A stretch of 64,000 bases of DNA from a virus (lineage: Duplodnaviria; Caudoviricetes), in IMG/VR virus record IMGVR_UViG_3300037067_007264, positions 64,001 through 128,000 of that record; one strand, given 5' to 3'. How positions within the stretch are numbered: position 1 is the stretch's first letter; each line of letters begins with the position of its first letter. The position numbers and the translations under genes are program-made. The notes under the pieces were generated by a model. It did not search any database and was not told where the DNA came from. It was given only the letters and a program-made list of their open reading frames with translations. Positions 5,722-62,612 of this stretch are shown piece by piece.

Positions 5722-6003
5722 ATGTCCATTGATCCATTCACCGGTGAATTCGAAAGTCGCCGAGAGGCAAAACTAACCATCTCAAGGGTCATTACGGACA
5801 GGGGGCCAGACGTTTGCGTGCATCTCTTATCAGCTGATGGTACTGAAGTTGCTGTACTCTCACTTTTGCATGCATCACACTTTGTATCACCTGGGGGTAC
5901 TCGAGAGGCCGTAGCAAGATGGTTGGGTGAGATGAACAACACCAAGCCACCAAAGATTCCGGTGGAACCTCCAACGAGATTTGAGCGCGAGGAAGTGATC
6001 TAG
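5722..6003 (+). CDS. hypothetical protein with C-terminal TRFER tag
   Basis: ends PPTRFEREEVI; GGTGTA 5706. Confidence 0.85.
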   Translation: MSIDPFTGEFESRREAKLTISRVITDRGPDVCVHLLSADGTEVAVLSLLHASHFVSPGGTREAVARWLGEMNNTKPPKIPVEPPTRFEREEVI

Positions 6004-6329
6004 ATCACCGGGTTTCGTTCAAAGCGGGTTGGAGCTATTACTTTCGGTTCTTCCACTGATGCACTCTCGTTGACAATAGGGTCACCCGTCCTGGGTGACC
6101 CATCTCTTTGATATTGAACATTATTGACTACTATGTAAGCTGCATCATCTGCCGCAGCTTCAACGGCGTCTTCGGTAGCAAGTTCACCTAGTACTCGTTC
6201 CTGTATTAGGGTCAAGTATACAGCCAGAGACCTCTGTGTGACGTCATAGACATCCTCAGGATCAAAACCCTCTTCCAGGAGGGTATCGACCATATCTTCG
6301 GCAATGGCTGAGATGTCTCGAGCGGGCAC
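6000..6329 (-). CDS. hypothetical protein with C-terminal TRFER tag
   Basis: ends APTRFERNPVI; AGTGTA variant upstream. Confidence 0.85.
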   Translation of the reverse strand: MPARDISAIAEDMVDTLLEEGFDPEDVYDVTQRSLAVYLTLIQERVLGELATEDAVEAAADDAAYIVVNNVQYQRDGSPRTGDPIVNESASVEEPKVIAPTRFERNPVI

Positions 6330-6338
6330 CGGGACAGG

Positions 6339-7196
6339 TTACACTAAGTTCCGTATCGGTTCAAGTCGTACCTTGAGCTTTTTTACGACCTTAGTCTGCA
6401 ATTGGCGTACCCTCTCGCGGGAGACCCCGAGTTGAGTACCTAGTTCCTTGAGGCTCACAACCTCTTCCGGATCCTTCATGAGACGATCCGTCACGATTCT
6501 AATCTCGCGTGGGGTTAGGGAGGACATAGCTTCTTTCACGGATTCTTGGTAGAGAGCTTGAAGCTCATGGTCCACCACATAATCATCCTGTCTCTGCAGG
6601 TCAGAGGACAGACTGTCTCCAATCTCCAAGTGGCTACCATCTTTGCTCCTATGGGAGTCCATCGACAAGGACAAGTCCCTCTTATCGGTAGCCTGCATGA
6701 ATTGTTGAACCTTCTTCAGAGGGAGATTCATGCTCTTTACTAATGCCTGTTCAACCTCACTTGGAGTCGTGTAAGTGTTCTGAGCTCGGACCTTCTCCTT
6801 ATGAAACTTGAAGAAGTCCTTTGATCGAAACTTCACTAAAGAGTTGGTCTCGTTTTGGTACTTGACCACATGTTTGAATAGGTAGGCTCGAATCCAATAC
6901 ACGGCAAATGTGACGAATCGGTTACCACTATCTGGATCGTAACGACTGTCAATAGCCATAAGGAGGCCAAGGTTACCCTCGCTGATCAGCTCCTCTATTG
7001 GAATTGGGTATCGCTTAAACTGAAGGGCAACCGCGGTCACATATCGTAGAGAAGCGTTAATGATCTTTGCTCGAGCTGCATAGTCTCCTTTGTCCCTCCA
7101 AGCCTTGTACAGACGAATCTCCTCTTCTCTTGAGAGTACAGGGATCGACTTCACATAGGTGATGTAGTCAGATATCGTCTTATCAATATGGAACAT
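6339..7196 (-). CDS. RNA polymerase sigma factor, RpoH/sigma32-like
   Basis: region 1.2 LSREEE; region 2 ELISEGNLGLLMAI..YDP..RFVTFAVYWIRA; region 4 LTPREIRIV..SLKELGTQLGVSRERVRQLQ. Confidence 0.95.
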   Translation of the reverse strand: MFHIDKTISDYITYVKSIPVLSREEEIRLYKAWRDKGDYAARAKIINASLRYVTAVALQFKRYPIPIEELISEGNLGLLMAIDSRYDPDSGNRFVTFAVYWIRAYLFKHVVKYQNETNSLVKFRSKDFFKFHKEKVRAQNTYTTPSEVEQALVKSMNLPLKKVQQFMQATDKRDLSLSMDSHRSKDGSHLEIGDSLSSDLQRQDDYVVDHELQALYQESVKEAMSSLTPREIRIVTDRLMKDPEEVVSLKELGTQLGVSRERVRQLQTKVVKKLKVRLEPIRNLV

Positions 7197-7249
7197 GGGT
7201 GGCTACTAACTATACCTCAATAGAAGATAAGAGGGGGACTATAAGCAGA

Positions 7250-7792
7250 CTATCGATTCCTTGTGTTGAACTCAAGGAGGTCCATCCTCGCTCTTAGTTC
7301 TTGATTATCGCTCTCGAGTCTCGCTATTCGACCCAGTAGTTCACTGAGGGTATAGGTCAGCCTCACATTATTTTCATACACGATACTCTGAAGTTGATTG
7401 AAATCATTGTTACCTGATATGTCAAGGTGGTGGATGGAATCCCAAGAACCCATACCCCCACTCGAGACAAGTAAGGGTCCACCACCAGATAGACCATTGC
7501 CGATGTTTTCTGGTGCAGGGCCGATCTGAACTCCAGTAGGTTCAACTTGAAGAGGCCTTAATGAAGAAGAATCGATGCGTATGGACCCACTATCATCCCC
7601 GTAGAATGTTGGATGTAACACCTCGGATGTAGGAGGACCAAGTATTCCAGATGGATAGTTCCTATGAGTCATCAAGTCCCATTCCTCTTCACGAAGTTTG
7701 GAAATCTTGAGAAGCTCATCCCGAAGACTGCTGATGGACGGCTTTGGTGCAGGCCTGATAGCCGCCCAGTACTCTTCTAAGTCGTCTTCCAT
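7250..7792 (-). CDS. N-terminal LEEYW-tag protein with C-terminal coiled coil
   Basis: MEDDLEEYWAAIRP; start reassigned by GGTGTA at 7805-7810. Confidence 0.8.
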   Translation of the reverse strand: MEDDLEEYWAAIRPAPKPSISSLRDELLKISKLREEEWDLMTHRNYPSGILGPPTSEVLHPTFYGDDSGSIRIDSSSLRPLQVEPTGVQIGPAPENIGNGLSGGGPLLVSSGGMGSWDSIHHLDISGNNDFNQLQSIVYENNVRLTYTLSELLGRIARLESDNQELRARMDLLEFNTRNR

Positions 7793-7859: not shown

Positions 7860-8555
7860 GTGTTCAAGAAAGACGTTAGGGAGATTGATACCCTGGATGT
7901 TGACGAGAGTGGTCACCTGAAGACCGCACTCGAAGCCCTTCGATTACTAATCATTGAAAAGCTTGAGTCAGGTCAAAGAACTCGATTCGCTTCAGTGGCT
8001 AGCTTGTGTGATGTAGCTCAATCGCTAATGAGATCTGAAGCGAACCCACGAGTCCCAAAGAGTAGGAAAGTTGCCTATATGGAGGATTATGAGGGTGCTG
8101 AGGGTGAGTATACCCCAAACGTTGTTGGAGATGTCCAATTCATGGGTCAACCAGTAATGTACCCGGATCCTAGGTACCAAAAAAGGAACATGGGTATTCA
8201 GATGGATGCCCTTTCCCAAGTTAACATAGAGAATCAGCGGTCTCAATGGGCTGCAGCTGAAGCTCAAGAACTTCGAGACTTGCTATCTGTTCGTGAAGTT
8301 ATAGGGGCATCTAGTAATAAAGATCTACTCGATGCCAGAGTAGCTAAGTTATTCAAGAACATAGGAGAGAGAACTGAAAATGGTAACCTGGTACATTCCG
8401 AGCTTTCACGGGGATCTTCAACTGGAGGCTCTAAGTCCAACAGAGACATCCCTTCGAATGTACAGCCTGTCCAATGTGGAACTGAGGGTAATGGAATCCT
8501 TCAGGAAGAAGGCTCTGAGAGGCGGGATACTATTCAAGCCTTGGGCGACAGCTGA
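7860..8555 (+). CDS. hypothetical protein
   Basis: GTG 11 nt after GGTGTA; 176-nt overlap with next ORF. Confidence 0.75.
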   Translation: MFKKDVREIDTLDVDESGHLKTALEALRLLIIEKLESGQRTRFASVASLCDVAQSLMRSEANPRVPKSRKVAYMEDYEGAEGEYTPNVVGDVQFMGQPVMYPDPRYQKRNMGIQMDALSQVNIENQRSQWAAAEAQELRDLLSVREVIGASSNKDLLDARVAKLFKNIGERTENGNLVHSELSRGSSTGGSKSNRDIPSNVQPVQCGTEGNGILQEEGSERRDTIQALGDS

Positions 8556-9168
8556 TAGCTTCCCTCCCATTTCGGAGTCCATATGTAGGACGGACCAGGG
8601 AATGACAGTTCGACTCCAGGCCTCTATCACCAAGGTAGCCAAGCACATAACTTCCAGACTGAAGCCCAGTCGAAGTCAGATCTCGGTAGTGAAGCTATCC
8701 AATGGTAATCTTCAGGAGTATAGGATCGATCCAACTCCTTCTGTAGCGGTAGCCTATCGAAGACCCTCTGTGACAGAGTCCATTGAGGAGTACTGGGAGG
8801 CTATCAAGTTGCCGGCGCTTACCGTGGCAGCTACGACAGTTGCCGTACCGGATAGAGGTTGTCCCGTTCCTGAATTTGCCAAGGCTGAGATTCGAGCTAC
8901 AAGGGTTCTAGAGGCATTCTTGGACCCAGGACAGATGGAGGACTTCCGACGGACAAATCAATTCATTACCATTGGTCAGGATACCGGCCATCGATACCTA
9001 CTTACCTCACGGATGAAGGTGAATAAGGGAGCCTTGTTTGACCTGGATCTTGATCGGTCCATTTGTGTACATGATTGGGAGGTACCAGCAGCTGAAGAGC
9101 TTTTGGGTCTCCACTTGTTCCTATCACTCCCAGGTTGGGAGAGTTGGATGCTCGAACTACCGGAGTGA
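8380..9168 (+). CDS. hypothetical protein with internal IEEYW tag
   Basis: TESIEEYWEAIKLP in central linker. Confidence 0.8.
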   Translation: MVTWYIPSFHGDLQLEALSPTETSLRMYSLSNVELRVMESFRKKALRGGILFKPWATADSFPPISESICRTDQGMTVRLQASITKVAKHITSRLKPSRSQISVVKLSNGNLQEYRIDPTPSVAVAYRRPSVTESIEEYWEAIKLPALTVAATTVAVPDRGCPVPEFAKAEIRATRVLEAFLDPGQMEDFRRTNQFITIGQDTGHRYLLTSRMKVNKGALFDLDLDRSICVHDWEVPAAEELLGLHLFLSLPGWESWMLELPE

Positions 9169-9170: not shown

Positions 9171-9773
9171 ATGCTTCCAACATCAGTCACCATTGGGCTA
9201 CTTCTGTTAGTTACTTTTACTCTTGGCTACTTGATTGGCCATAAGAAGGGGTTGCGCGAAGGAATCAAACTTAGAGAGGCTTTCAATAAGCCCCCTCCGC
9301 CCCCACCAAAGGAGGATACAGCTACCGCTTCTTCGGTTCCCTCTCTTGAGGTATCAGACCCAGATCGAATATTCGTTGACAAGTATAGTGTTTACAGAGG
9401 GGGAGTGATCTTCCGAGGGGGTCTGGAAATAGCTATCATTGATGAATCATCCCCCTTTGAGTTTGATAAGCTTCATGGTGTGCAGGAACTAAGTAGTGAC
9501 TTTGAACACTGTCGTAGGTTGAGTCGGCTATGGTTCGAAAAGTTTGGGGTTGATGCTGGGGTAGCTCTCTGTAATAGAGCGTACTTTGTCTCAAAGTCCG
9601 GTTTATTCTGGAAAGGTGACTTCATTCTCGGCAGGTTGGGTTCTCAATTTGAATTCGAAAAACTTAGTGGAAGCCCTGAGTTTTATCTGAAACCAGGACC
9701 GGAAGACGTAGAGATCTGTGAGAAGTTGTCCCTAGCCTGGAAGGCAGAATTCTTACCACCAACTGCTGCTTAG
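9171..9773 (+). CDS. single-TM protein with two repeated subdomains
   Basis: TM IGLLLLVTFTLGYLIG; FEFDKL.G / FEFEKLSG repeat. Confidence 0.75.
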   Translation: MLPTSVTIGLLLLVTFTLGYLIGHKKGLREGIKLREAFNKPPPPPPKEDTATASSVPSLEVSDPDRIFVDKYSVYRGGVIFRGGLEIAIIDESSPFEFDKLHGVQELSSDFEHCRRLSRLWFEKFGVDAGVALCNRAYFVSKSGLFWKGDFILGRLGSQFEFEKLSGSPEFYLKPGPEDVEICEKLSLAWKAEFLPPTAA

Positions 9774-10192
9774 ATCACATCTTCTCTTTCGAACCTTGTC
9801 GGATGGGGCTCCTTGAACCACCACGCGGGATTTACACTCTTCTCTGGTTGATGCTCAACTAGAGCAGCAGCGATCTGGGTCTCCATATAGAACATCACCA
9901 CCTTGGACGGCCAAGCTGGCATTGGTTCAATAGCTCTGAGAATGTGCTCGTTACGAAGTCCAAAGTCAGTCAGTAACCTAGCCGTAGTGGGAACCACTTC
10001 AAGCCAGAATTGACTCTTACCCTCGACTTCACGACATAGAAACATGGTGTGCCATCTTCTACCGTCGTAGACATCATCTTGATGTTCTACCCAGACTCTT
10101 CTGTCCCAATCGAATAGATGCTTAGGCTTCAACGCCATGAGATCTCTTGATTGGAGCCTAGTGACTGGCATCCAGATGATATCAGATGACAT
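9770..10192 (-). CDS. hypothetical protein with C-terminal TRFER tag
   Basis: ends HPTRFEREDVI; GGTGTA 10202-10207 (minus). Confidence 0.85.
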   Translation of the reverse strand: MSSDIIWMPVTRLQSRDLMALKPKHLFDWDRRVWVEHQDDVYDGRRWHTMFLCREVEGKSQFWLEVVPTTARLLTDFGLRNEHILRAIEPMPAWPSKVVMFYMETQIAAALVEHQPEKSVNPAWWFKEPHPTRFEREDVI

Positions 10193-10235
10193 GGCTTCCA
10201 ATACACCGAGTCACGGGGTATACTAGCTTGAGCAG

Positions 10236-12441: not shown

Positions 12442-13266
12442 ATGCCAAAAAAAACCGTCCGAGCCTATCTCAGTGAGCGAGAGTATATGCAATTCAACAT
12501 CCTAGCAGCCAAAAGAGGTCTTAGCCGTACTCTATTGACACTAAGAGTAATCCAAGAGTACTTAGTGTCTCAAGCGCGAGTTGAGCGTTACATGGTAGAC
12601 CCCGTTGCGGTTCCTGTAGAAACTAAGACGATCAAGATCAATACTCGGCAGTATGCCAGGTTGAAGAAGCTTCAAGTTGATGTACCAGGGTGCTCATGTG
12701 AAGTTCTCGAAGTTGAAGACGTCAAGAACATAATGCTGACCTACCCACTGAGTCGCGAAGCTGACGTTCTGAAGTTCTTAGCTGACTGCCCCAAGGGCTC
12801 GAGAAAGGAGTCCAAGGTCTTTAAGAAAATGGACCCAACTGCAACTCCAGGACTGAAGGCTGCTAGGCGTAAGAAAGAGGAGAGTGAGGGAGCTACCATC
12901 CACTCTCGAATCATCATGGCAGCTGAGAAGATCCTGATGGGGAGTCCTTTGCCGTTCGAAGACTTGTACTCTCAACTCAAGGCTCTAAAAAGAATTCCCG
13001 GTGGGTTTAACCCAAAGCCAATCCTCAGGAGACTACTAAAGGAGAGCCAGTTGTTTGACCTGAGCTCCGATGACACCTACTCTATTAGAGTTGAGTGCCA
13101 AGAAGAGTCGACTCCAGAACCAGAGGACCCAACACCAAACCCGGCTTCAGAAGCGGTTATTGAAGCTCCTCCAATATCTGAAACCCGGATTGAGGTAACC
13201 CCGAGTAAACCTGAGGGTTCAATCCCAAAAGTTCCAGTCCACTTTCCAAGATGGTCAGGAAGTTGA
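12442..13266 (+). CDS. putative DNA-binding protein (RHH-like N-terminus, HARE-HTH-like domain)
   Basis: KTVRAYLSEREY..LAAKRGLSRT; AAEKILMGSPLPFEDLYSQLK; GGTGTA 12424. Confidence 0.7.
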   Translation: MPKKTVRAYLSEREYMQFNILAAKRGLSRTLLTLRVIQEYLVSQARVERYMVDPVAVPVETKTIKINTRQYARLKKLQVDVPGCSCEVLEVEDVKNIMLTYPLSREADVLKFLADCPKGSRKESKVFKKMDPTATPGLKAARRKKEESEGATIHSRIIMAAEKILMGSPLPFEDLYSQLKALKRIPGGFNPKPILRRLLKESQLFDLSSDDTYSIRVECQEESTPEPEDPTPNPASEAVIEAPPISETRIEVTPSKPEGSIPKVPVHFPRWSGS

Positions 13267-13307
13267 TAAACTTGACTCTTGCTAGGTAACATGCCTAAAA
13301 GGCAAAC

Positions 13308-13838
13308 ATGTCTAGCAGACTGAGAGCTCTTGAATCCGATATCACTACACTCAACGTTGATGTAATTGTCAATGCTGCCAACGAAGTTATGCTTGGAGGC
13401 GGCGGGGTAGACCACGCAATCCATGCTGTAGCAGGGCCAGGGCTTCTGGAAGCCTGTAAGAGGGTCGTTGAGGTAAGTCCTGGAGTCAGGTGCCCAACTG
13501 GGGAAGCTCGCATCACACCGGCCTTTAGCCTGCCTTGCAGGTATGTTATTCACACGGTTGGACCCATCTGGAAAGGTGGGTTCAACAAAGAGGCTGAGCT
13601 TCTCACTTCTTGCTACCGAGAGAGCTTGAAGCTCGCAGCTCAATTCGGAACCTCGGTTGCCTTTCCAAGCATCAGCGCCGGGGCCTATGGTTACCCAACG
13701 GATAAGGCTTGTGAGATAGCTGTACGAGAATGCAAAGCATTCCTGAAAACTGACAGAACTCTCAATGATGTGATTCTAGTTTCATACGAGTCACCGATGA
13801 TCTTCGATATCCTCACGAAGATGATCCAATACCTCTAG
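13308..13838 (+). CDS. macro domain ADP-ribose hydrolase (YmdB-like)
   Basis: DITTLNVDVIVNAAN..GGGGVDHAIH..AG; VIHTVGPIW; AFPSISAGAYGYP. Confidence 0.95.
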   Translation: MSSRLRALESDITTLNVDVIVNAANEVMLGGGGVDHAIHAVAGPGLLEACKRVVEVSPGVRCPTGEARITPAFSLPCRYVIHTVGPIWKGGFNKEAELLTSCYRESLKLAAQFGTSVAFPSISAGAYGYPTDKACEIAVRECKAFLKTDRTLNDVILVSYESPMIFDILTKMIQYL

Positions 13839-14260
13839 ATTACATCCTCACGCTCGAACCGAGTCGGTGGTAGGGGTGCATCAGGTTCCTTGTGTACACC
13901 TAAGGATTCGGCACGAAGTCTCTTCACAACTTCCTGATCGACAGTTATCCCATTTAGGACCATTGTCTCGAGAATCTCTTCCATAGTCTGAGGGTAATCT
14001 GCAATATTACCCTCAGAGCGAGGCCTAGCAAGAACTACTCTGGTAAAAGGGTTGTAAGCTGGTGATCTAAACTCTCCAATGCGATTCTGGAGGAAGACTT
14101 GAAGGTCCTGCATGAGAGAGGAGCAATTAGCATTGTTCCAAGGTCCAGGACCAAACTCACTACAAGGAAACCCCGTTACATGTACCAATTGACTTTGATC
14201 CTCGAGGCCGCCTGATTCAGAATCTGGAATTAGCCTAATCTGAACTTCGAGGTATGGCAT
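13835..14260 (-). CDS. hypothetical protein with C-terminal TRFER tag
   Basis: ends PPTRFEREDVI; start at ATG next to upstream stop. Confidence 0.8.
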   Translation of the reverse strand: MPYLEVQIRLIPDSESGGLEDQSQLVHVTGFPCSEFGPGPWNNANCSSLMQDLQVFLQNRIGEFRSPAYNPFTRVVLARPRSEGNIADYPQTMEEILETMVLNGITVDQEVVKRLRAESLGVHKEPDAPLPPTRFEREDVI

Positions 14261-14261
14261 A

Positions 14262-14753
14262 TCACAGTACCGGATCCCTCTCGAATCGAGTCGGGGGTAA
14301 GTTTTCTGATGGAGTATCTCCTTCCACACATTGTTGAAGGAAGTTACTGGCTTTCGCCACAGAAGCATCGACCCCAGCAAACCACTTTTTGCTATCTATC
14401 CCGTTCGATTTGAACTCATCCCTCATACTACTGATAGCTATAATGAGATCCCCAAGGTGGTTGACTAAACCAGAAATAATGGCGTCATCCTCTGGAAAAG
14501 ACCTCACTGATGACATTCCCAATTGAGATCGTAGCCATTGCTCGTACAGGAAACCTTGCTCGAGAGCCGCCTGACGGAAGTCTAATGAGCAAGCATAGTT
14601 CTGCCCCAGGGTTCGAGGGTTGGCGTAGTAAATAGCATCGAGAGCCTGATTTATGAGGTTGCCGCCAATGTCCACAGAGATATCTTCGGATACCCCAAAT
14701 TCCTTTAGGGTATCCTTCATGTGAACAAGTAGTGTGTCAATTGAGTGAGGCAT
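14262..14753 (-). CDS. hypothetical protein with C-terminal TRFER tag
   Basis: ends PPTRFERDPVL. Confidence 0.85.
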   Translation of the reverse strand: MPHSIDTLLVHMKDTLKEFGVSEDISVDIGGNLINQALDAIYYANPRTLGQNYACSLDFRQAALEQGFLYEQWLRSQLGMSSVRSFPEDDAIISGLVNHLGDLIIAISSMRDEFKSNGIDSKKWFAGVDASVAKASNFLQQCVEGDTPSENLPPTRFERDPVL

Positions 14754-15115
14754 TACAGAACCGGATTTCTTTCAAATCTAGTTGGTCGTGAGATACTATT
14801 CGGGAGAAAATTCATGGCAGCTTGTTCTACATGAGACCTTTCTATAATGTATTGAGCTAGATGTACATGGGCTTCTTCAACGGATTTTTCTAAGGAGGTT
14901 TCTTTTCCACTAGCTGTGAAGGAACACCCGTAAGTTCCGCAATACCACTCATAGGGTTTCGGATTGTCAATGTCAGCCAGATCCCTGAAGATAGACATGT
15001 TGTATCCTCCACGGGTCGTGTACCAATAGATCCCTGGTCGTGATGGTTCGTTGGGTCTTCGAGACACCCTGATCCCCAAGAGAATCAACTCAAGATCCTT
15101 TTCCTCAGTTGGCAT
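14753..15115 (-). CDS. hypothetical protein with C-terminal TRFER tag
   Basis: ends RPTRFERNPVL; GGTGTA 15126-15131 (minus). Confidence 0.85.
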   Translation of the reverse strand: MPTEEKDLELILLGIRVSRRPNEPSRPGIYWYTTRGGYNMSIFRDLADIDNPKPYEWYCGTYGCSFTASGKETSLEKSVEEAHVHLAQYIIERSHVEQAAMNFLPNSISRPTRFERNPVL

Positions 15116-15125
15116 AGGCTCCAGT

Positions 15126-15163
15126 TACACCAAAATAGCTTGTAAAGTCAACTCTTCGGTGTA
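15126..15163. promoter_or_regulatory. divergent class A motifs between TRFER and IESYW operons
   Basis: TACACC 15126-15131, GGTGTA 15158-15163. Confidence 0.7.
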
Positions 15164-15188
15164 CTATGCGACAGGCCAACCCTAAGCC

Positions 15189-15213
15189 GGCCAAGTGTAA
15201 GGCTTGGGTAAAG
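15189..15213 (+). repeat. 25-nt exact repeat of 27294..27318
   Basis: ggccaagtgtaaggcttgggtaaag at both sites. Confidence 0.85.
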
Positions 15214-15701
15214 TAGCTGACACCGACGATATCGAGTCATTCTGGGATGGGCTGAGGCCTCCACGGGATCCGAGTACATTCACCAATGTAGCTGTCGAGA
15301 GTGTCAACTTAGAAAACCCTGTCGATGAGGAATCAATTCCTTATGTGACTCGTTACACCGTTGATTATGGTGACAACTCTCCCCTTGAGATAGAGGAGTC
15401 TAGTGCCTCCTTCACCACTATTGCCGAGGGTAATATCATCACGGACCCACCCTACTCTTCTCACTTGAGTGGCACGGACAGATCAAACAGGAGTCTCTTT
15501 AGAGAGATCGTTTACGCAACGGAAAGACTCCGCCAGTTACTAGGGTCAGCTGGAATAACCTATAACTTCACCAGACTGATAGATGGAATTGATATTAGAG
15601 CTCAGGATCTTAGTATTGGACCTGAAGATCCACGTTTAGGTTACTACCGAGAGATGACTGTTCTCATGGCCAATTCTGAGGATACCAATGCCAGAAGATA
15701 A
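15204..15701 (+). CDS. hypothetical protein with N-terminal IESFW tag
   Basis: DTDDIESFWDGLRPP. Confidence 0.8.
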   Translation: MGKVADTDDIESFWDGLRPPRDPSTFTNVAVESVNLENPVDEESIPYVTRYTVDYGDNSPLEIEESSASFTTIAEGNIITDPPYSSHLSGTDRSNRSLFREIVYATERLRQLLGSAGITYNFTRLIDGIDIRAQDLSIGPEDPRLGYYREMTVLMANSEDTNARR

Positions 15702-17196
15702 TGAAGTTGAATCCTATTGGGACCATCGGGAAGGTATTCGGACTCCTCCGACTCAAGAGTCTCGAGACCAATGGAACCCTAGTGGGCAACAGATATTCAA
15801 CATCCTGACTCGAGTGTTTGCAGATCCTCCCGCCGAGTATATCAGCCAGACTGAGAACGCTAACCTGATCATCACCCATCTAACTCGACAGTACAGGACT
15901 ACAGGTAACTACCCTGACTATGAAACAGTGCGTAATACATTTGAGACGAGAATAGAACCTGGTTGTGTTCTACTCTTAGATCGCATTGTACATAGTAACT
16001 TGTATAGTCGTACCCTGACTAGTGGAGAGTTGTGGGAGTACATGAGGAGGATGTATTCAAGTACCCCTACTTCTCGCATCCCTGAGGTAGATAGACAGAT
16101 CAGTGACTATGTCCTTGAGTATTGCAGGGAACACCATGCCTACCCATCGATAGCTATCATGCGTGGGTACTTCATTTCGAGCATGAGAATTCAGGAACGA
16201 ATTCAGGACTTGATTGTTCGTGTAGGGGGCCTCGATGGTGATATCCCATCTCCAAGCCTACCCCAAGAAGTGACGGCGCTTCAAGAAGAGGGTGAGTCCC
16301 AGAGTCAAGTTATCCTGGATATGCGTAGATTGGCTCTGCTACTGAGCAACCTTCAAGAACTCATCGACAGAGTTGGGGACGATGACCACATTGATTCGAT
16401 CATCACCGAGGTGTTCACTTGGGTTGAAGCTCAAGGTACTGCCCACAACATGCGTACTAGTTGGTGGCAAGACACCCTTCACAACTTCGAGGTTACCTAC
16501 CATATTCGTCGAGGGAGTGTTCATCGACAAGGGACTCATGCTCACGACAGTACTGCTGCAGACCGTAGGATTCTAGCATACACTGAACAGTACATGGGGA
16601 TGGTTGGGCATCTACCGAGCCAGGACGAGACTCGAAGATACTTCACAAGCGAGAATGATGGTCATGCTATAACAAGGTTGTCAGAAATAAACAGGAACGA
16701 AGTACCCCAGCATGAGAGACGCATGGATGCTGGTACCATGTTCCTAGGCCATAACATAGCAGACCTAGAGTTACCGGAGAGACGTTCCGACGATGAGCGG
16801 GAGTATGACACTCGTATCAACCTCAGGCGGGTTGCCCTGCTGCTCAATGGGATCATTGAGACATCCGATAATATGTCAGAACCCCTCAACAGGCGGGTGC
16901 TCAGTAACTTACAGACATCTCTTGATGAGTTAGGGGGTAGAACTTTCAACCATTATGGGGATGAGGACTGGAGGAGGACAACCCTACATAACTTCCGAGT
17001 GGAGTTCCTACCCATGAGTGCTCCGGGCACGTTCCCTCGTCCAGAGGAACTTTATCCAACTGAGAGACATGCCTACCCACCACCTAGGGATCCAATGACG
17101 ACCAGACCTCAGACCAGACCTCAAGAAAGGGTTGCTGAGGACAATAGGGTAGATGGGCCTGCTGAAGATGACTCTGTATCGATAACCAATGACTGA
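15688..17196 (+). CDS. repeat-containing protein with N-terminal VESYW tag
   Basis: EDNEVESYWDH; internal repeats. Confidence 0.85.
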   Translation: MPEDNEVESYWDHREGIRTPPTQESRDQWNPSGQQIFNILTRVFADPPAEYISQTENANLIITHLTRQYRTTGNYPDYETVRNTFETRIEPGCVLLLDRIVHSNLYSRTLTSGELWEYMRRMYSSTPTSRIPEVDRQISDYVLEYCREHHAYPSIAIMRGYFISSMRIQERIQDLIVRVGGLDGDIPSPSLPQEVTALQEEGESQSQVILDMRRLALLLSNLQELIDRVGDDDHIDSIITEVFTWVEAQGTAHNMRTSWWQDTLHNFEVTYHIRRGSVHRQGTHAHDSTAADRRILAYTEQYMGMVGHLPSQDETRRYFTSENDGHAITRLSEINRNEVPQHERRMDAGTMFLGHNIADLELPERRSDDEREYDTRINLRRVALLLNGIIETSDNMSEPLNRRVLSNLQTSLDELGGRTFNHYGDEDWRRTTLHNFRVEFLPMSAPGTFPRPEELYPTERHAYPPPRDPMTTRPQTRPQERVAEDNRVDGPAEDDSVSITND

Positions 17197-17395
17197 ATCT
17201 GAAGACAGCATCGAGTCCTATTGGGAGGTAGTTCGTCCTCACTTGATAGAGAGAGCTCGTCAACGAAGGGCTGCTCTACTCAAGAATATTCTAGGGGAAC
17301 ATCCGATAAAAACCTACAAGATCATCAAGGAATGGAACACATGTGAGTCCATCAGAGAGTTAAATTTGTCAGATGGCTACTACAAGAAGTGGTGA
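17189..17395 (+). CDS. small protein with N-terminal IESYW tag
   Basis: EDSIESYWEVVRP. Confidence 0.8.
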   Translation: MTESEDSIESYWEVVRPHLIERARQRRAALLKNILGEHPIKTYKIIKEWNTCESIRELNLSDGYYKKW

Positions 17396-17436
17396 CATAG
17401 AATCATATTGGGAGGTAGTTCGTCCTCACTTGATAG
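17219..17436 (+). repeat. 31-nt direct repeat (17219..17249, 17406..17436) encoding YWEVVRPHLI
   Basis: tattgggaggtagttcgtcctcacttgatag twice. Confidence 0.9.
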
Positions 17437-17705
17437 TCGAAAGCTCCATCAACTCCATGGTATTGCTGAAGGCTTTGATGAGGGTTAGCCGAAGAGTTTT
17501 GGTGCCAACCTTTGCGGCTGACCTGAAGATCCGCGAGTATATCTCGACGGTATTCAACACCTTCGGGGTCGAGGTCAGGTTTGAAACGATCCGGGAGCAC
17601 TTCCGTGGGGTACTAACTGAGTATGACTTCGAAAAGCCATCTGAAAACTTGGAGGTGCTCAAACGTCTTGACGAGATCTCCCGCATGTGGCCGGATGTGC
17701 TTTGA
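17373..17705 (+). CDS. protein with N-terminal IESYW tag
   Basis: GDIESYWEVVRP. Confidence 0.8.
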   Translation: MATTRSGDIESYWEVVRPHLIVESSINSMVLLKALMRVSRRVLVPTFAADLKIREYISTVFNTFGVEVRFETIREHFRGVLTEYDFEKPSENLEVLKRLDEISRMWPDVL

Positions 17706-27610: not shown

Positions 27611-27839
27611 CCTTACCGAACCGCCAATAAGCGGCCACCTCTACGGATTTCCAGACCGGTTCTTACCAACACCTGAACTGCCACGGGTACCTGCAGTCAA
27701 GAGCCATCGGTACTGAACTGAGACACACGGACCATCCAGCTTCCGAGTAAGCGGGTGCAGGACTGAGGGCATCTCATGACCACGACACTACCAGACGAAA
27801 ACAGACCCTGTCAAGACAGATTTGGTGTACCCTAGGCTA

Positions 27840-52798: not shown

Positions 52799-53461
52799 AT
52801 GGCCGAACCAGAAGCATTCGTCTTCCCGCACCCAGCAGAACTCACCTCAGGGGAACCAAACCTCCTAGTACCACCAGAAATGGTTCTTATCCTGTATAAC
52901 AGGCAAGGGGTGCGAGGGGAAAGCAGCACTTACGTCAACGGTTTGGTTCGTACTTGGTTTTCTTTTGAAGCTAAAAGCCGGGGATGGGCCTCTACTACTT
53001 GGTTGGGAACTAGCGACTGTGAGTACCCTGGACCTGGATGTTGGCTCAGTATTCTAACTAAGCCTGAGTTGCCCCCAAGCCCAGAGGAACGTAGGAACTG
53101 TACCGTTACGTCGACCCAACCTCCAGAGCACCCGAGTGTAGAATTCATATCCGAACACTTGACCTCGGGAATCGAACCACCCTACCAGACTGAGTACAAA
53201 CGAGATCTGAGTCACGGTGATGCGCAAGCAGAGCTCAACGCTCAAGAGGATGACCACACCTTTGCATTCCTTGGGTACGATGAGATGATCACCAACTTGA
53301 CCCACCTCGTTGAGATCCTTGGGTGGAAGTTGGAGCCCCTTGGTGAAAAGGAGGCTCATGTCCTATCGAACAGAGCTGGTCACAAGATACTGCTCGTTCA
53401 ACGCTTCAACCACCCCCTGTTACTCGAGAAGGTCAAAGACTCGGTGAAGCCAGATGCCTGA
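52799..53461 (+). CDS. hypothetical protein
   Basis: GGTGTA 52781. Confidence 0.75.
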   Translation: MAEPEAFVFPHPAELTSGEPNLLVPPEMVLILYNRQGVRGESSTYVNGLVRTWFSFEAKSRGWASTTWLGTSDCEYPGPGCWLSILTKPELPPSPEERRNCTVTSTQPPEHPSVEFISEHLTSGIEPPYQTEYKRDLSHGDAQAELNAQEDDHTFAFLGYDEMITNLTHLVEILGWKLEPLGEKEAHVLSNRAGHKILLVQRFNHPLLLEKVKDSVKPDA

Positions 53462-53780
53462 AGACCCACCGAAGAAGCAGTTTATTGTCAGAACCAAGCG
53501 CTGCCAGAAGCTGGTGGTGGACCCCGTGACAATTCAGGTTCACGGTAAGTTGTTTTGCACTGCCAGCTTGGATGGGTTGGCTTCAAAAGAACTCGATGAG
53601 TTCATGACGGTCTTTGAGAAGCTTGTTGGGATACCCTGTATTGTCACCAACTACCCCATGGACATCAAGCTGTTGGAGATCATTGAAGCACCTGATACAC
53701 CAGAAGAACCTGAGCCTCGAACTCGCTTTGAACGAATCAATGAAGACGAGTCATCGACTGACAGGGAAGACGACGCGTAA
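53454..53780 (+). CDS. protein with near-C-terminal TRFER tag
   Basis: EPRTRFERINEDE. Confidence 0.8.
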   Translation: MPEDPPKKQFIVRTKRCQKLVVDPVTIQVHGKLFCTASLDGLASKELDEFMTVFEKLVGIPCIVTNYPMDIKLLEIIEAPDTPEEPEPRTRFERINEDESSTDREDDA

Positions 53781-53904: not shown

Positions 53905-55425
53905 GTGACAACAGAGCGTTTCAGTAACCAGGCTTCAACCACACTGTCTACCCTTGTAGGTGCTGGGGACCTCACCCTTTCAGTTCAGGGTACGGCTCAT
54001 TTTCCGACTCAGCCTGAGTTCCGGATCCGAATCGGACAAGAACTCATGTTGGTTACTGGAGTCTCTGGAGTTACTTGGACAGTAACTCGAGGGATTGAGG
54101 GAACCTCAGCTTTACCCCATGCGGCCGGGACGGCCGTAGTGGCCGTCCTCACTGCCGGTGCCCTTGATGAACTTCGAGCCGAGATCGAAGCTGAGGACAG
54201 AACAGCCTCTGGGATTCGAACAGCTTCAACTGTAGTGGCCGTCTCATCAGCAACGGCTCCTTTGGTGGGTCAGGTACTTACTGCCACGAGCGGGACTGCT
54301 GCTGATTGGGAGACTCTTATAGGGGACACGATAACGGCTCCTAGGATTCCACTCAATGGGTCGACAACCTCGAATGTTGACCTTACGACCAACAACTGGA
54401 CCTCCGTGATGCCGGTGACTTTCAACAATATAGGGTTGGAACTATCATCGGTCTACATTACTACTGTCACCTTCACATGTACTATCTGGAAAACAAGTTC
54501 TCTGTCCGTGTGTGGTAAGTTCCGTTTGGTAGCAGACTTGACAATACGGACTAACCAATTAGGGCAAGTCCTATGCTCATTTCCTGCTAGTGCCCAAGGT
54601 AATAGTGCACCATTGTTAGAGACTCCTCTAGAAGGGGCTGAGTTAGATCTGATTCAATCCACCAATGGGGTTACGCTGCGAGCAATACGTCCAGCTGGCG
54701 TTGCTTGCACGGTTAGTGCTGAGTGGGCTACAAACTCATTTGATCGATTAGGGGTTGCTCCAGACTATCCTCAAGTAGGGGAGTGGGGGACTGGAGATAT
54801 CTGGATTGCCGATGATGCAGTATTGTCTGGATCGAATGTGACTTCGATAGCAGGTCGAGAGTCTGGGTTGGTGATGACACCCTCGGGTGGGACCTTTACA
54901 TCTGAGGTTGATCCTCTTACGGGTACACGTGTATTGGTGGGTGATACTTCTGCTGTTCTTACAGCGACTAACCCTACACTATTGGCTGGGTTTGATGGTG
55001 TTAGGACTCCTAACATCGTCTTTGTTCAGTTTACCTCTCGTCATACTAGGGTTAGCAACTGGATAATAGAGGTTACTGATTCCAGTACCAACTCGCGAGT
55101 GATACAGATCAATTGGTCATTCGGGGACTTCTATGGGGTCTACCGAGTTTCACAGCCCAGTTACATCGTGGATTCCTTCACGAATCCAGTTGACACTAGA
55201 GTTACAGTAGTGGCTTGTTTGCACACGGACGGCAAGTTGTACATTGTCAGCCCAGCTGGCACATCACCTGGGTTAGCGGATACTACAACTCCAGGCCTAA
55301 CTGGAATTGATCGGGTGAAAGTAGGTAATAGCGGGGACAAACTGAGGCGATGGGGTCTTCGATTATCGGATAACCCGCTAGCTGACTCAATTGACATTTA
55401 TCAAGAACTGGTGTTGATGCCATGA
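53905..55425 (+). CDS. putative tail fibre/virion structural protein
   Basis: N-terminal ASTTL..FP..RIRIGQELMLVT..TVTRG.EGT.A..H.AG module; T/S/G-rich. Confidence 0.75.
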   Translation: MTTERFSNQASTTLSTLVGAGDLTLSVQGTAHFPTQPEFRIRIGQELMLVTGVSGVTWTVTRGIEGTSALPHAAGTAVVAVLTAGALDELRAEIEAEDRTASGIRTASTVVAVSSATAPLVGQVLTATSGTAADWETLIGDTITAPRIPLNGSTTSNVDLTTNNWTSVMPVTFNNIGLELSSVYITTVTFTCTIWKTSSLSVCGKFRLVADLTIRTNQLGQVLCSFPASAQGNSAPLLETPLEGAELDLIQSTNGVTLRAIRPAGVACTVSAEWATNSFDRLGVAPDYPQVGEWGTGDIWIADDAVLSGSNVTSIAGRESGLVMTPSGGTFTSEVDPLTGTRVLVGDTSAVLTATNPTLLAGFDGVRTPNIVFVQFTSRHTRVSNWIIEVTDSSTNSRVIQINWSFGDFYGVYRVSQPSYIVDSFTNPVDTRVTVVACLHTDGKLYIVSPAGTSPGLADTTTPGLTGIDRVKVGNSGDKLRRWGLRLSDNPLADSIDIYQELVLMP

Positions 55426-58612: not shown

Positions 58613-59170
58613 ATGCCCCCTGAACCCGATGATATAGAAGAGTACTGGGGTGTAGCCCGCCCCGAGCGGTTGGTTACACCCCAGTCAGTACCCTCTGAGT
58701 CAATGACTGTTGAGGAGGTTCTAAAGACCATCAAGAAGTTCAACAAGGAAGTTCTTTGCATGGGCCTTGCCGTTATGGTGAACCATGGAGATGTAAGCTC
58801 ACCTACAATTGTTGCTGAATCTGCCAAAGAGCTTGAACGCTTGACGAAGAATACCTTGGTTCAATTGACCCTACTAGCTGGGGTTCCTGTAAGTATACTA
58901 AAACAGTGCAATGACTCGAGGACAAATGTCAGATCTAGGAACCTCGATGACCCGAGAGCTTCCAACAACCTCTTCATGCCTGACAGGACTGAGGAGCCTC
59001 AGAGTATGCGCATCCTCCCTCAGGGGCAAGTAAGGTCAGCAATGGGTCGTATCCTACAACCTCAATCCCGTTGTTCTAATTGTGGAGTACTTACTAACTC
59101 AAATCAACGGTTGTGTGACCCGTGTAGGGTTCACCGAGCTCAGGCCAGAAGGCGCAGGTCAGGTTACTAA
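58613..59170 (+). CDS. N-terminal IEEYW-tag protein with C-terminal zinc ribbon
   Basis: PDDIEEYWGVARP; CSNC..CDPC; GGTGTA 58568. Confidence 0.8.
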   Translation: MPPEPDDIEEYWGVARPERLVTPQSVPSESMTVEEVLKTIKKFNKEVLCMGLAVMVNHGDVSSPTIVAESAKELERLTKNTLVQLTLLAGVPVSILKQCNDSRTNVRSRNLDDPRASNNLFMPDRTEEPQSMRILPQGQVRSAMGRILQPQSRCSNCGVLTNSNQRLCDPCRVHRAQARRRRSGY

Positions 59171-60690: not shown

Positions 60691-61139
60691 TCCAACGAAA
60701 CCAGTGCAAGAACCGTCAGCTCTATCGGATCCGCTCGCGCAACCTAATCTTTGGGGTATTCCACGAGGAGAATGGTGGGTTCTTTGGACTCAGGAAAAAG
60801 TTCAATTACACCTATGTCTTCGAGGAGTATCACTGGGGTAACGGCCCACCGTACGGTACGGTGAAGCCCATTGAAGAGATGCCGGAGACCCTGCCGGAGA
60901 GCATTGCTCTGGCGGCAGACCTGGGGTCAATATGCTCTGAGTGCAAAGTACCTTGTGCCTACATCAAGTTTCCAGATGGGGAGCGGGAGAAGACCTATGA
61001 GGACGGACATAAGATGATGATCTCCGGAGAGTGGGAGCACCTCGAGTCTACAGATTGTCCCCAGGTGTCACCCATGAGTAAGAGCAACTCGGCCCTCGAG
61101 CGATGGCTGAAGCGGATGGAAGAGAAATACAAGTCATGA
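60687..61139 (+). CDS. hypothetical protein
   Basis: ATGA coupling. Confidence 0.75.
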   Translation: MIQRNQCKNRQLYRIRSRNLIFGVFHEENGGFFGLRKKFNYTYVFEEYHWGNGPPYGTVKPIEEMPETLPESIALAADLGSICSECKVPCAYIKFPDGEREKTYEDGHKMMISGEWEHLESTDCPQVSPMSKSNSALERWLKRMEEKYKS

Positions 61140-61441
61140 ACCCCAAGCAGGTTGCATGCATTCGGGCCTGCATTCAGGCCGAAGACCCGGTAGGGCTATT
61201 TCAATTGCAGAAGGCCTTTGACGAGTTGATAGCCGAGGCGGAACGGTATAGAGTACGGCCGATCGCTGAGTTGAAGGGGACCAAACCCGACCGAAATGTC
61301 TTCGTCTGGTCTCCCTACTCAGGCAGATCAATCCAACTATTCAGTGGTAATGTCCTTTGGAATGAAGCCAATGCCACCCACTTTTGTGAAGTACCTAACC
61401 CCTCTCAACAAGAACTTGGTTATGATAAGTTGAAGATATGA
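61136..61441 (+). CDS. hypothetical protein
   Basis: ATGA coupling. Confidence 0.7.
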   Translation: MNPKQVACIRACIQAEDPVGLFQLQKAFDELIAEAERYRVRPIAELKGTKPDRNVFVWSPYSGRSIQLFSGNVLWNEANATHFCEVPNPSQQELGYDKLKI

Positions 61442-61647
61442 CTGATCGACACTCAGGTTACCTTGTAACCCTAGATAAGGACATTCGTTCAGACGATGCA
61501 GAGAGTACTTTGAATGCTCTTCGGATGGTTCGAGGTGTTATCTCGGTTGAGCCCGTTATCTCTAACATCGAAGTGCATATCGCCGAGGATAGGGCCAAGA
61601 GAGAGCTGTTGAGTAAGATCTACGAGTTTCTGGTGACTCTCAAATGA
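61438..61647 (+). CDS. small ferredoxin/ACT-like fold protein
   Basis: LVTLDKDIRSDDA..ALRMVRGVISVEP. Confidence 0.7.
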   Translation: MTDRHSGYLVTLDKDIRSDDAESTLNALRMVRGVISVEPVISNIEVHIAEDRAKRELLSKIYEFLVTLK

Positions 61648-62081
61648 AGCCATCCAAGATCCACATCCGAGTTGTCCACGCTGAGCTAGAAAGAGCTGAC
61701 GAGGATAGTGCTTATCGGTCTGTATGCCCTGTATGTAAGACCGGGCTACTGCTGATTCACAGGGACAAGGAGACCTTCAAACTAGTCAGATCCGATATCT
61801 GCATTCAGTGCGGGCAAGGGTTCTACTACACGGACAATATGATCAACGGGGAAGAGTTCACTGAGAAGGTTCCTTACCCTCTCTTTGAGATCGTAGGGCC
61901 TCCCTGTCCGGCGCCTGGGTGCAAGGGAGTCTTGACTCCAACCATGTCACTGAAGACCAGGGTGTGGTTTAGCAAGTGTCACGTCTGCAATGGAGAGTTC
62001 AGTAGAGCTCCACTTGGTAGTAAGAGAAAGTGGATCCGTCATCGAAACCTCGATGTCATTAAGGGCGGGAAGGACGATTGA
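61644..62081 (+). CDS. double zinc-ribbon protein
   Basis: CPVC, CIQC, CPAPGC, CHVC. Confidence 0.75.
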   Translation: MKPSKIHIRVVHAELERADEDSAYRSVCPVCKTGLLLIHRDKETFKLVRSDICIQCGQGFYYTDNMINGEEFTEKVPYPLFEIVGPPCPAPGCKGVLTPTMSLKTRVWFSKCHVCNGEFSRAPLGSKRKWIRHRNLDVIKGGKDD

Positions 62082-62612
62082 TTGCCCCCGAACCTTCGAT
62101 TTTGGATGCTCAGTGATCTATCACCAAGCCCTGAGGGGGCTACTTTCACCCGCGAGTCCCCGGAACATGAGGTATTATGGATCAACCGTAACTTGACGGT
62201 GTCCACGACTCACGAGATGGGTGTTAACCACCGTGTTCGGCTACCTCGTTTGACCTTTGAGGGTGGGAGGTTCTTGATACTCGAACAAGTCCAACGTCTG
62301 ATGGCTAACCTAGCCACGTTTTCGAACAACCCAGGAGCTCAGGACGGCACCCTCTATGGGGTGCAACATGCCCTGCCTACCTATGTTGAGCACCCGACAA
62401 CCGGGCAAGTTATCCTGACTTGGATTCTCTCACTGGGCTACTCGCTTATGAACCTCACCCCTCAATTCAACGGTTCAGAAATGACCCTTCCCGTAGGGGC
62501 TCTGATGGGCTACTTGAGACACCTGATTGACAACATGCCGGCAAATAGGTTGTCTGAGCCCTACAACGGGCCACGACCCACCCGCTTCGAACGGATACTC
62601 GAGGAAGATTGA
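62082..62612 (+). CDS. protein with C-terminal TRFER tag
   Basis: ends RPTRFERILEED. Confidence 0.8.
   Translation: MPPNLRFWMLSDLSPSPEGATFTRESPEHEVLWINRNLTVSTTHEMGVNHRVRLPRLTFEGGRFLILEQVQRLMANLATFSNNPGAQDGTLYGVQHALPTYVEHPTTGQVILTWILSLGYSLMNLTPQFNGSEMTLPVGALMGYLRHLIDNMPANRLSEPYNGPRPTRFERILEED

Follow-up and report, generated by a model that had tools for sequence, protein, structure and literature searches.

In phage T4, the capsid-targeting sequence MKTYQEFIAE is reportedly carried by IPI-III and by Alt, and the T4 internal proteins are basic. Encapsulin cargo peptides have the consensus G-S-L-x-I-G-S-L-K-G. ClpX is reported to recognize unrelated substrates by short peptides at either terminus, and also to read linker-borne tether peptides, for example that of SspB. 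Here we analyse a ten-residue peptide that, together with a flexible linker, is found on about one in eight of the proteins of an uncultured huge phage. The first-pass annotation had regarded the motif as not previously described; in agreement, a literature search gave no relevant paper.

Tagged open reading frames and their genome setting

The window (the whole stretch of 64,000 nucleotides that was analysed) is part of the 145-kb contig G000, about 28% of a ~500-kb uncultured huge phage, of which the 512-kb G004 is a complete relative. A six-frame scan of the window found a (P)TRF[ED]R-type tail at the end of all 12 open reading frames (ORFs) for which a shared C-terminal tag had been claimed, eight of type 1 and four of type 2, in line with the two proposed subtypes. 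The type 1 ORFs include 5722-6003 (+, 93 aa; tag PPTRFEREEVI at 5971-6000) and 6000-6329 (-, 109 aa; APTRFERNPVI, 6032-6003), neither of which belongs to a Pfam family, and 9770-10201 (-, 143 aa; HPTRFEREDVI, 9802-9773), which keeps its tag in the G004 and G002 orthologues. Three more are 13835-14380 (-, up to 181 aa, the true start probably being later; PPTRFEREDVI, 13867-13838), 14262-14753 (-, 163 aa; PPTRFERDPVL, 14294-14265) and 14753-15115 (-, 120 aa; RPTRFERNPVL, 14785-14756), the last with a G004 orthologue at 175298-175660. The remaining two are 39867-40277 (+, 136 aa; PPTRFEREWVI, 40245-40274) and a variant at 18621-19103 (+, 160 aa; PPDRFHREEVI, 19071-19100). Type 2 tails end 30393-30941 (+, 182 aa; YPTRFDRILKQP, 30906-30938), 30950-31225 (+, 91 aa; PPTRFERILIGD, 31190-31222), 53454-53780 (+, 108 aa; PRTRFERINEDE... 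from 53718, with a 14-residue acidic tail) and 62082-62612 (+, 176 aa; RPTRFERILEED, 62577-62609), the last being a paralogue of G000 132898-133395. Two extra matches in the window (22098, - and 50917, -) are in short ORFs that overlap longer ones and are apparently due to chance.

A sister tag is found at the N-terminus of seven plus-strand ORFs: 35-526 (SIEEYW...), 15204-15701 (DDIESFWDGLRPPR), 17189-17395 (DSIESYWEVVRP), 17373-17705 (GDIESYWEVVRP), 17687-18055 (DDIESYWEGLRPPR), 58613-59170 (DDIEEYWGVARPER) and 63445-63819 (NDIESYWMDVRPVR). The ORF at 8380-9168 (+), which is either a fusion or of uncertain start, has an N-tag-like motif, SIEEYWEAIKLP, at residue 134, and its G004 orthologue has such a motif in the same arrangement.

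Comparison with shuffled proteins excluded chance as the source of the tag, since the called ORFs of G000 contain 31 TRF[ED]R matches compared to a mean of 0.035 (maximum 1) in 200 residue shuffles, and G004 contains 50 compared to a shuffled expectation of 0.165. The C-terminal enrichment named as a test by the first-pass annotation was present genome-wide: 28 of the 31 matches in G000 and 46 of the 50 in G004 were near the C-terminus, with ~90% of the matches in the two records no more than 30 aa from the stop. DNA pattern counts in five related records were 61, 44, 12, 5 and 7, against 0-1 for the reversed-pattern control, and the N-tag was found in those records too (17, 7, 6). In total, six related records yielded 70 type 1 tails, 89 type 2 tails and 32 N-terminal sister tags; thus 159 of 191 tags are C-terminal, the N-terminal ones being the sister tag only, and the two always co-occur in genomes at a ratio of roughly 5:1. 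Tags are borne by 9-15% of all genes, and the tag is shared across the whole phage clade. Its carriers are restricted to the accessory half of the genome: all but one of the 59 tagged genes of G004 lie within 0-290 kb, and none of the 59 is in the head or replication modules.

The tagged proteins are acidic, most have no TM-like hydrophobic stretch, and nearly all are ORFans, only a handful of 165 matching any family in a Pfam scan (one of them with a weak Tad2-like match). All-against-all blastp of the bodies showed that the carriers do not form a single family. The 32 bodies of G000 include just three clear paralogue pairs, and a few more small paralogue groups were found in G004; the earlier claim of unrelated bodies therefore stands for most carriers but not for these pairs and groups. 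A single paralogous family with a shared C-terminal domain was rejected, since similarity did not extend beyond the tag apart from the three pairs.

Residue pattern, peptide-level selection and portability

The type 1 consensus is P-T-R-F-E-R-x-x-V-I-stop, with P exactly 10 residues before the stop and a tail end of x-x-V-[IL]; V followed by I, V or L forms the last two residues in 58 of 61 tags, giving a non-polar extreme C-terminus. Type 2 has the consensus P-T-R-F-E-R-I-L followed by an acidic tail of variable length, up to 45 aa (TRF[ED]RI[LN] plus tail in the window copies), and its extreme C-terminus is not non-polar; I-L-E follows the core in 16 of 86 type 2 tags. The N-terminal sister tag has the consensus D-D-I-E-S-Y-W-x-x-h-R-P, and shares with the C-tag the spacing of hydrophobic positions, with opposite charges at the flanking positions. 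Position tables contained neither Q-L-x-L-F nor D-D-D-I-P-F, and a sliding-clamp motif (Q-L-[SD]-L-F) and an SSB acidic tip were rejected on these grounds. One protein has a tandem pair of tags, and a few proteins in these phages start with N-R-F-D-R-I-L.

Several comparisons revealed selection on the peptide. Codons vary freely within the tag (four Thr codons, six Arg codons, TTT 39 and TTC 39), which places conservation at the peptide level, as had been proposed. The tag is also conserved far more than its carriers: body identity between orthologues was 67% for G000 and G004 and 52% for G002 and G004, compared to 97% and 89%, respectively, for the tag core. In one protein, EPRTRFERV..DAD was invariant in nine orthologues 65-83% identical to the query. 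Even G003, which has no protein more than 75% identical to its G004 counterpart and only one tagged orthologue in common, has 44 tags with the same consensus despite this divergence.

The tag is also portable, as the first-pass annotation had anticipated for a module that follows a linker on otherwise unrelated accessory proteins; the linker preceding it is variable. The same body is found with a C-tag or with an N-tag, and both tagged and untagged paralogues exist. For example, the body of the ORF at 18621-19103 is 34% identical over 105 aa to the N-tagged G000 130145-130636. Homologues outside the clade without the tag, another check that had been suggested, were found for DUF7448: among the best 120 homologues, nine have the N-tag and a P/E-rich linker (157-169 aa), whereas in the others listed the domain starts directly and the untagged median length is 127 aa. 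Because one domain bears either tag, and because 9 of 120 DUF7448 homologues have an N-tag plus linker, we conclude that the tags are add-ons. The N-tag, D-D-I-E-S-Y-W-E, appears to be an alternative form of the C-terminal label.

A probable docking helix and its candidate readers

These results make it very likely that the peptide is a portable, clade-specific address, a docking helix, and we infer with similar confidence that one common receptor reads it. The tag would probably form one short helix, with T (or S, D, N) as the N-cap, E or D three residues later completing a capping box, and a hydrophobic contact made by F together with I/L or V/I; the variable linker would hang this helix on fast-evolving accessory proteins. 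The N-tag shows this pattern as well: N-cap, x, hydrophobic, E, x, hydrophobic, hydrophobic, acidic.

As for the destination, we tentatively suggest that the label sorts its carriers into the assembling phage head for ejection with the DNA, in the manner of T4 capsid targeting or of an encapsulin cargo peptide and possibly assisted by a phage AAA+ chaperone. Giant phages pack dozens of head proteins, SPN3US having more than 50 gene products (PMC10052503), and Iyer et al. 2021 (PMC7824862) propose that BCS1-type AAA+ proteins of jumbo phages bring folded proteins into the head. Hints towards the head come from three or four tagged proteins in which parts of the phage's major head protein (phrog_2522; G004 403571-404440) recur, and from one with an Ig-like segment that resembles head-decoration and virion proteins. 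In addition, an AAA+ gene lies inside the densest tag cluster in G000 (28442-29662), G002, G004 and G006. Pfam gives only an AAA domain for its product, whose model ranked Bcs1 first in Foldseek (E 1.5e-13, 360 columns, TM 0.38-0.41) and YjoB first in VIA-align (Z 15.2, rmsd 3.2, 212 aligned, model residues 110-372); proteasomal Rpt chains tied with YjoB in VIA-align, covering the AAA domain only.

Several observations argue against head cargo. No protein of the head module has a C-tag or an obvious complementary repeat, and one (G004 408389-409138) begins with the N-tag-like LIDYW. The tags are mostly C-terminal with no evident protease site, whereas the T4 signal is N-terminal and cut off; the carriers are acidic, in contrast to the T4 internal proteins; and a head that took up more than 60 different cargo proteins would be very heavily loaded. 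The G003 version of the AAA+ candidate is divergent at the N-terminus, has no acidic tail and lies in a different gene neighbourhood, yet the tag is unchanged. Neither the tag nor any other over-represented terminal peptide is present in the closest other huge phage, whose terminase is 46% identical; therefore head loading in the lineage does not generally need a tag. Finally, tags in a bacterial metagenome-assembled genome (MAG), described below, fit a host-encoded receptor at least as well.

Somewhat less probable is a role of the tag in recognition by, or tethering to, an AAA+ unfoldase, the candidates being a phage ClpX with host ClpP, the host ClpX or the clustered Bcs1/YjoB-like protein. 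Early or accessory proteins with a tag would then be removed or remodelled at set times, or would act as adaptors that bring bound host proteins to the unfoldase. A phage-encoded ClpX is available: that of G004 combines an N-terminal zinc-finger domain with a GYVG pore loop and a ClpP-docking loop of the IGF type (MGF), its gene being interrupted by an intein, and a search for ClpP in the phage found none. The fixed distance of the type 1 tag from a free hydrophobic C-terminus is consistent with such a signal, as is the presence of tags on accessory genes only, given that the untagged structural and replication proteins need to be stable; were the reader a conserved ClpX of host or phage, an unchanged tag across divergent phages and host islands would also be explained. 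However, the long acidic tails of type 2 would make poor ClpX degrons, some tag copies are internal or duplicated, the clpX gene is not adjacent to most tagged genes, and the clustered protein showed no aromatic pore loop in the alignment and diverges at its N-terminus in G003.

It is also rather unlikely that the tag docks mobile-element proteins on a host hub, such as the transcription, translation, chaperone or envelope machinery, in which case any element in the host lineage could adopt it. This explanation draws on one deltaproteobacterial MAG, in which three places, two of them beside tRNA genes, have small ORFs with the identical consensus; VapE, an integrase and a Mu-type transposase lie nearby, and the bodies are unrelated to the phage carriers; no head genes were found in the stretches fetched around these places. 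A constant tag in phages whose proteins diverge and whose carrier set turns over is also consistent with a host hub, as is the absence of the tag from the sister huge phage, which presumably has another host. On the other hand, the MAG has eight PTRFER sites compared to three in the control, six of the eight within those three places and no excess elsewhere, and the tag was found in none of 30 relatives of the MAG, so the host's own proteins seem not to use the motif. Moreover, the putative link between the MAG and the phages consists in the tag itself.

We consider it improbable that the C- and N-tags are complementary partner helices that, in the manner of docking domains, join their carriers in mixed complexes. 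In such a pair R1 and R4 of one tag would oppose D1 and E/S4 of its partner, and the hydrophobic faces would match. Both tags always occur in the same genomes, and C-tagged and N-tagged gene runs lie back to back at 13835-18055; but either tag is found on homologous bodies, pointing to equivalent rather than partner tags, and the three MAG stretches have C-tags only. It is most improbable that the motif is a site of covalent change, be it phosphorylation of Thr by a Ser/Thr kinase of the phage, modification of Arg, or cleavage after R-x-x-R. In favour of such a site, a kinase-like protein is encoded on the G000 contig, the positions T, R, F and R hardly vary, and R-x-x-R is present in both tags. 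Against it, the only substitutes for T are S, D and N, the helix N-cap set and not the expected phospho-acceptor pattern, no FHA reader was found in six phage records, and no modifying enzyme tracks the tag.

Returning to the docking helix with the head as its destination, we speculate, with considerable doubt, that the clade runs its own sorting code, in which interchangeable helices (C-terminal TRFER, N-terminal IESYW) would mark 9-15% of the proteome for one virus-built destination, most plausibly the prohead with a dedicated AAA+ loader, the same mark appearing on proteins of small host-integrated elements; the carriers would then form a rapidly exchangeable arsenal injected with the DNA.

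Comparison with described terminal peptides

If one receptor reads the label, a ten-residue peptide organizes more than 60 otherwise uncharacterized proteins of a 500-kb phage, and the identity of the reader would give about a tenth of the genome a common fate, whether the proteins are packed and injected, destroyed at a set time or docked on a machine of the host. The label offers a handle for sorting huge-phage 'dark matter' genes into functional classes and could serve as a portable tag for protein loading or targeting. The MAG copies provide a lead to the host and suggest that traffic or competition links the phage with smaller elements in the same host.

A 469-kb phage, G007 (e1-370441), may likewise have a shared terminal peptide, MNRYDIALGKKPPP, on many unrelated proteins, and its N-R-Y-D-I-A-L resembles T-R-F-E-R-I-L. 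That tag is N-terminal and far less frequent (5 sites), in contrast to the mostly C-terminal tag of the clade, and G007 showed neither a TRF[ED]R excess nor an orthologue of the N-domain of the clustered AAA+ protein.

Like ClpX signals and the SspB tether, the tag is a short N- or C-terminal peptide on unrelated proteins, the tether likewise being carried on a long linker. The ssrA tag is bipartite and has 11 residues, and the type 1 tag has the same length and a hydrophobic free C-terminus, but there is no likeness to LAA or LRVVK and type 2 ends acidic. With T4 capsid targeting the tag shares a terminal peptide of ~10 residues that is portable among unrelated accessory proteins of a large myovirus-type phage, and a loose pattern match, T-x-x-E-x-hydrophobic-hydrophobic-E. 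The T4 signal, however, is N-terminal only, few proteins carry it, and the prohead protease cuts it off at L/I-x-E, whereas the present tag is mostly C-terminal, far more widespread and has no evident cleavage site; a head-maturation protease is encoded at G004 406716-408386. Encapsulin and microcompartment peptides differ from the tag in sequence, the encapsulin consensus included, but the overall design is the same: a short C- or N-terminal peptide on a flexible linker, attached to otherwise unrelated cargo. The encapsulin cargo peptide is read by the inside of an HK97-fold shell; the putative shell here would be a DNA-filled virus head.

A C-terminal peptide label and its test against chance

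All 12 C-terminal tails claimed for the window in the first-pass annotation were present at their ORFs. Eight were of type 1, P-T-R-F-E-R-x-x-V-[IL]-stop, in which the P stands exactly 10 residues ahead of the stop, and four were of type 2, in which T-R-F-[ED]-R-I-[LN] leads into a short tail that is mostly acidic. The anticipated genome-wide C-terminal enrichment over shuffled proteins was also found. Among called ORFs of G000, the parent contig of the window, TRF[ED]R occurred 31 times (28 within 30 residues of the stop) compared to 0.035 in residue shuffles; in G004, a complete relative, it occurred 50 times (46 near the stop) compared to 0.165. In a blind count of terminal 4-mers in G004, RFER appeared 43 times.

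The label extended to other records. Pattern sites for TRF[ED]R in five related records numbered 61, 44, 12, 5 and 7, with 0-1 in the reversed control. At the gene level, six records together held 70 type-1 tags, 89 type-2 tags and 32 copies of an N-terminal sister tag, D-D-I-E-S-Y-W-x-x-h-R-P (N-tag); in the four larger records, 9-15% of called genes were tagged. The strict DNA pattern PTRFER[ED][ED]VI-stop, for which we calculated a chance expectation of about 0.01 matches in IMG/VR, had 27 matches there, spread over seven contigs that came from a few samples. This pattern was also matched by short contigs in a small number of metagenome samples, and the type-2 DNA pattern matched the seven contigs and a few more. 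R, F and R were invariant in all 61 distinct type-1 tails, and the T position was substituted only by S, D or N. In G004, all but one of the tagged genes lay within 0-290 kb, the half of small accessory genes, and the head, tail and replication half contained none. In sum, the observation holds, lies far outside what chance would give and reaches further than first noted.

As the first-pass annotation had observed, codon use in the tag is free, with synonymous codons all in use at every position. A conserved DNA or RNA element at gene ends was therefore rejected. An origin by read-through or from tmRNA was dropped because tagged genes showed no stop-codon bias and the phage tmRNA tag is unrelated. 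The claim that the tagged proteins (carriers) are unrelated held for most tag-stripped bodies and failed for three clear paralogue pairs among the 32 of G000.

Conservation and shape of the tag

Comparison of orthologues revealed different rates of change along the same proteins. Between G000 and G004, the bodies and the 20 residues preceding the tag were each 67% identical, compared to 97% for the tag core; between G002, another related phage, and G004, the values for body, preceding residues and core were 52%, 49% and 89%. A further relative, G003, was at most 75% identical to G004 in any protein and shared only one tagged orthologue with it. Its 44 tags had an identical consensus, and in one run of 15 genes, 11 were tagged.

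Labels and bodies were also found in other combinations. The body of the C-tagged window ORF 18621-19103 was 34% identical to an N-tagged protein and also resembled an untagged protein of 294 aa, and untagged paralogues exist for other tagged proteins. An N-tagged DUF7448 protein of G004 had 508 homologues; among the best 120, nine had the N-tag and a Pro/Glu-rich linker (157-169 aa), all among the 12 closest, and the others listed started straight at the domain, with a median length of 127 aa for untagged proteins. The idea that homologues elsewhere lack the tag was borne out by the untagged DUF7448 copy of the nearest other huge phage. By these sequence comparisons, the label stays constant while the cargo set turns over, and the tag is an add-on with selection of its own. 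We also noted a protein of 191 aa in which an internal PTRFER[LI]L precedes N-E-I-W-E-D-Y-R-P, an arrangement kept between genomes (G000 27563-28138, minus strand, two genes downstream of an AAA+ gene at 28442-29662; G004 227143-227718).

Under helix-capping rules, a capping box consists of S, T, D or N, with E or D three residues later; in the tag, this pattern is preceded by P. In type 2, helix positions 2, 5 and 6 would be taken by F, I and L; in the N-tag D-D-I-E-S-Y-W-E they would be taken by I, Y and W, and position 3 by E. Type 1 would keep the first helix turn and finish in a fixed, free hydrophobic C-terminus. Because the hydrophobic residues share helix positions, we infer that the C-tag and N-tag may be two versions of one amphipathic helix that differ in their flanking charges (R and R in the C-tag, D and S/E in the N-tag). 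The only carrier structure predicted, that of a Tad2-like protein, is of low confidence (pLDDT 52, tail below 50), and the low values in the tail would be compatible with flexibility.

Genome context, carriers and candidate readers

G000 is a single virus contig of 145,487 bp, about 28% of a genome by CheckV, and its bases 64001-128000 form the window. Products in the window include a sigma factor, a tail-fibre-like protein, a radical-SAM protein and an acetyltransferase; outside it G000 encodes NAMPT, a Ser/Thr kinase, a ParB-like protein, a CCA-adding enzyme and a PurZ-like adenylosuccinate synthetase (12850-14256; phrog_1211, E 2e-74), the last of which hints at 2-aminoadenine DNA. G004 (IMG/VR 3300028654_000001; 512,571 bp, complete, with terminal repeats) holds orthologues of many G000 tagged genes. 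Near-identical DNA came from groundwater, landfill, wood-decay and drinking-water metagenomes (five studies). At 457-480 kb and 498.6 kb, G004 has a tmRNA (predicted tag VADLPRDSLGSG), a block of 41 tRNA genes and, apart from that block, a tRNA with a CUA anticodon (amber suppressor-type). Family searches of the phage records found no FHA match and no tubulin/PhuZ, and therefore nucleus-forming biology of the phiKZ type is not indicated.

Other short repeated elements were seen in these genomes. The motif GGTGTA occurs window-wide (e.g. 15126-15163) and throughout G004, starting 10-19 nt before a start codon in 53 of 112 occurrences, at 15-17 nt in most listed cases, and with equal frequency in the accessory and core halves of G004. 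As it precedes start codons in both halves, it is uninformative on timing and was rejected as a promoter common to the tagged genes; its behaviour resembles that of a ribosome-binding element. Six G004 proteins (235-992 aa; 13138, 19699, 61132, 68911, 164453 and 510316) all begin with M-T-T-E-R-F-x-N-Q-A-S-T, which probably marks an anchor domain that they have in common, and the tail-fibre-like window ORF 53905-55425 may belong with them. A third N-terminal peptide, L-R-V-A-A-R-[YF], is found on six G004 proteins (gene starts 22318, 274706, 276364, 414860, 418512 and 460734), two of which flank the large terminase and two of which adjoin ClpX.

Function could not be read from the carriers, as a Pfam scan of 165 tagged proteins left all but a handful without a match; the few included a weak Tad2-like match, a RecA/UvsX-like fragment, DUF7448, an HNH repeat and sigma-70 region 3. 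As a group the carriers are acidic, with a median pI of about 5.5 (about 4.8 for the N-tagged ones), and a TM-like hydrophobic stretch is missing from most of them. We consider it highly probable that this portable peptide serves for docking or as an address and that a common partner reads it.

For its purpose, addressing of head cargo ranks first, as a tentative reading. Several carriers contain shuffled pieces of the phage's own major head protein (phrog_2522, 289 aa; 35-56% identity over 45-92 residues in PHROGs; G000 31838-32863 and 33978-34733, G004 220848-221597 and 222714-223754), another contains a piece of the phage's own UvsX-like recombinase (G004 288766-289425), and one has an Ig-like segment resembling head-decoration proteins; carriers with such pieces could be decoys or assembly modulators. 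The head module of G004 was located and comprises the major head protein (403571-404440), a protease (406716-408386), the portal and the terminase; the C-tag is absent from it. BCS1 proteins of jumbo phages have been proposed to load folded proteins into heads (Iyer et al. 2021, PMC7824862).

The AAA+ gene at G000 28442-29662, a candidate reader, lies within the densest tag cluster of G000, G002, G004 and G006, a further related record; its model ranks Bcs1 and YjoB first, with a weak match beyond the AAA domain, and homologues of its N-domain number only 11, several of which sit on contigs of 170-512 kb. Counting against it as reader, neither its N-terminus nor its acidic tail is conserved in G003, though the tag is. 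Co-folding of residues 1-365 (alignment A2) with type-1 tails (A3) gave 0.00 and 0.05, which is neutral on binding. ClpX of G004 (277071-279446) looks complete, with a zinc finger, GYVG and an IGF-type loop, and is interrupted by an intein in its P-loop; no ClpP was found in the phage records. A 981-aa AAA+ protein (G004 291481-294426) is also intein-interrupted, and a 698-aa protein, nuclease-like by eye, has an apparent intein (433254-435350). As readings of the tag, recognition by ClpX or another AAA+ machine ranks second and is unlikely, and docking on a host hub ranks third and is improbable.

Occurrence outside the phage clade

Among 185,579 species genomes, the strict pattern matched only one, a deltaproteobacterial metagenome-assembled genome (MAG) of about 8 Mb, in which the same tail ends six small ORFs with unrelated bodies in three places. 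Two of these places adjoin tRNA genes, and VapE, a phage-type integrase and a Mu-type transposase are nearby. The phage and the MAG tag stretches have in common, at 40-42% identity, a protein of 267 aa whose structural neighbours are faint and sigma-like (MAG L057:461-1270 and L058:7473-8387; G004 483440-484243); on MAG contig C27, two copies bracket tagged genes. The MAG stretches also had a local match to a phage protein of 133 aa, and those on contig C16 had two further weak matches. This MAG is the best lead to the phage host.

The closest other records were LR745208.1, from an uncultured phage of 485 kb whose terminase is 46% identical, and Tunturi_5, a Tunturiibacter phage in culture (29%). 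Because the motif is absent from both of these phages and from thirty relatives of the MAG, and shows no excess in the rest of the MAG, the label is an invention of a single narrow clade, together with elements in a single bacterial genome. A blind terminal 4-mer count in LR745208.1 gave nothing like the RFER of G004. The 10-residue motif is too short for a profile search; 40-aa tails searched against 1.84 billion proteins gave nine matches at E <= 0.001, eight of which end in the tag and resemble carriers known from the clade. Another huge phage carries the tag MNRYDIAL; a link to it was set aside, since that phage has no TRFER excess and no orthologue of the AAA+ protein, and the likeness is a lead only.

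A literature search on TRFER in phage and on C-terminal motifs in huge phages returned no relevant description, and we found none of this motif. Devices of this type have precedents in T4 targeting sequences, encapsulin cargo peptides and degrons.
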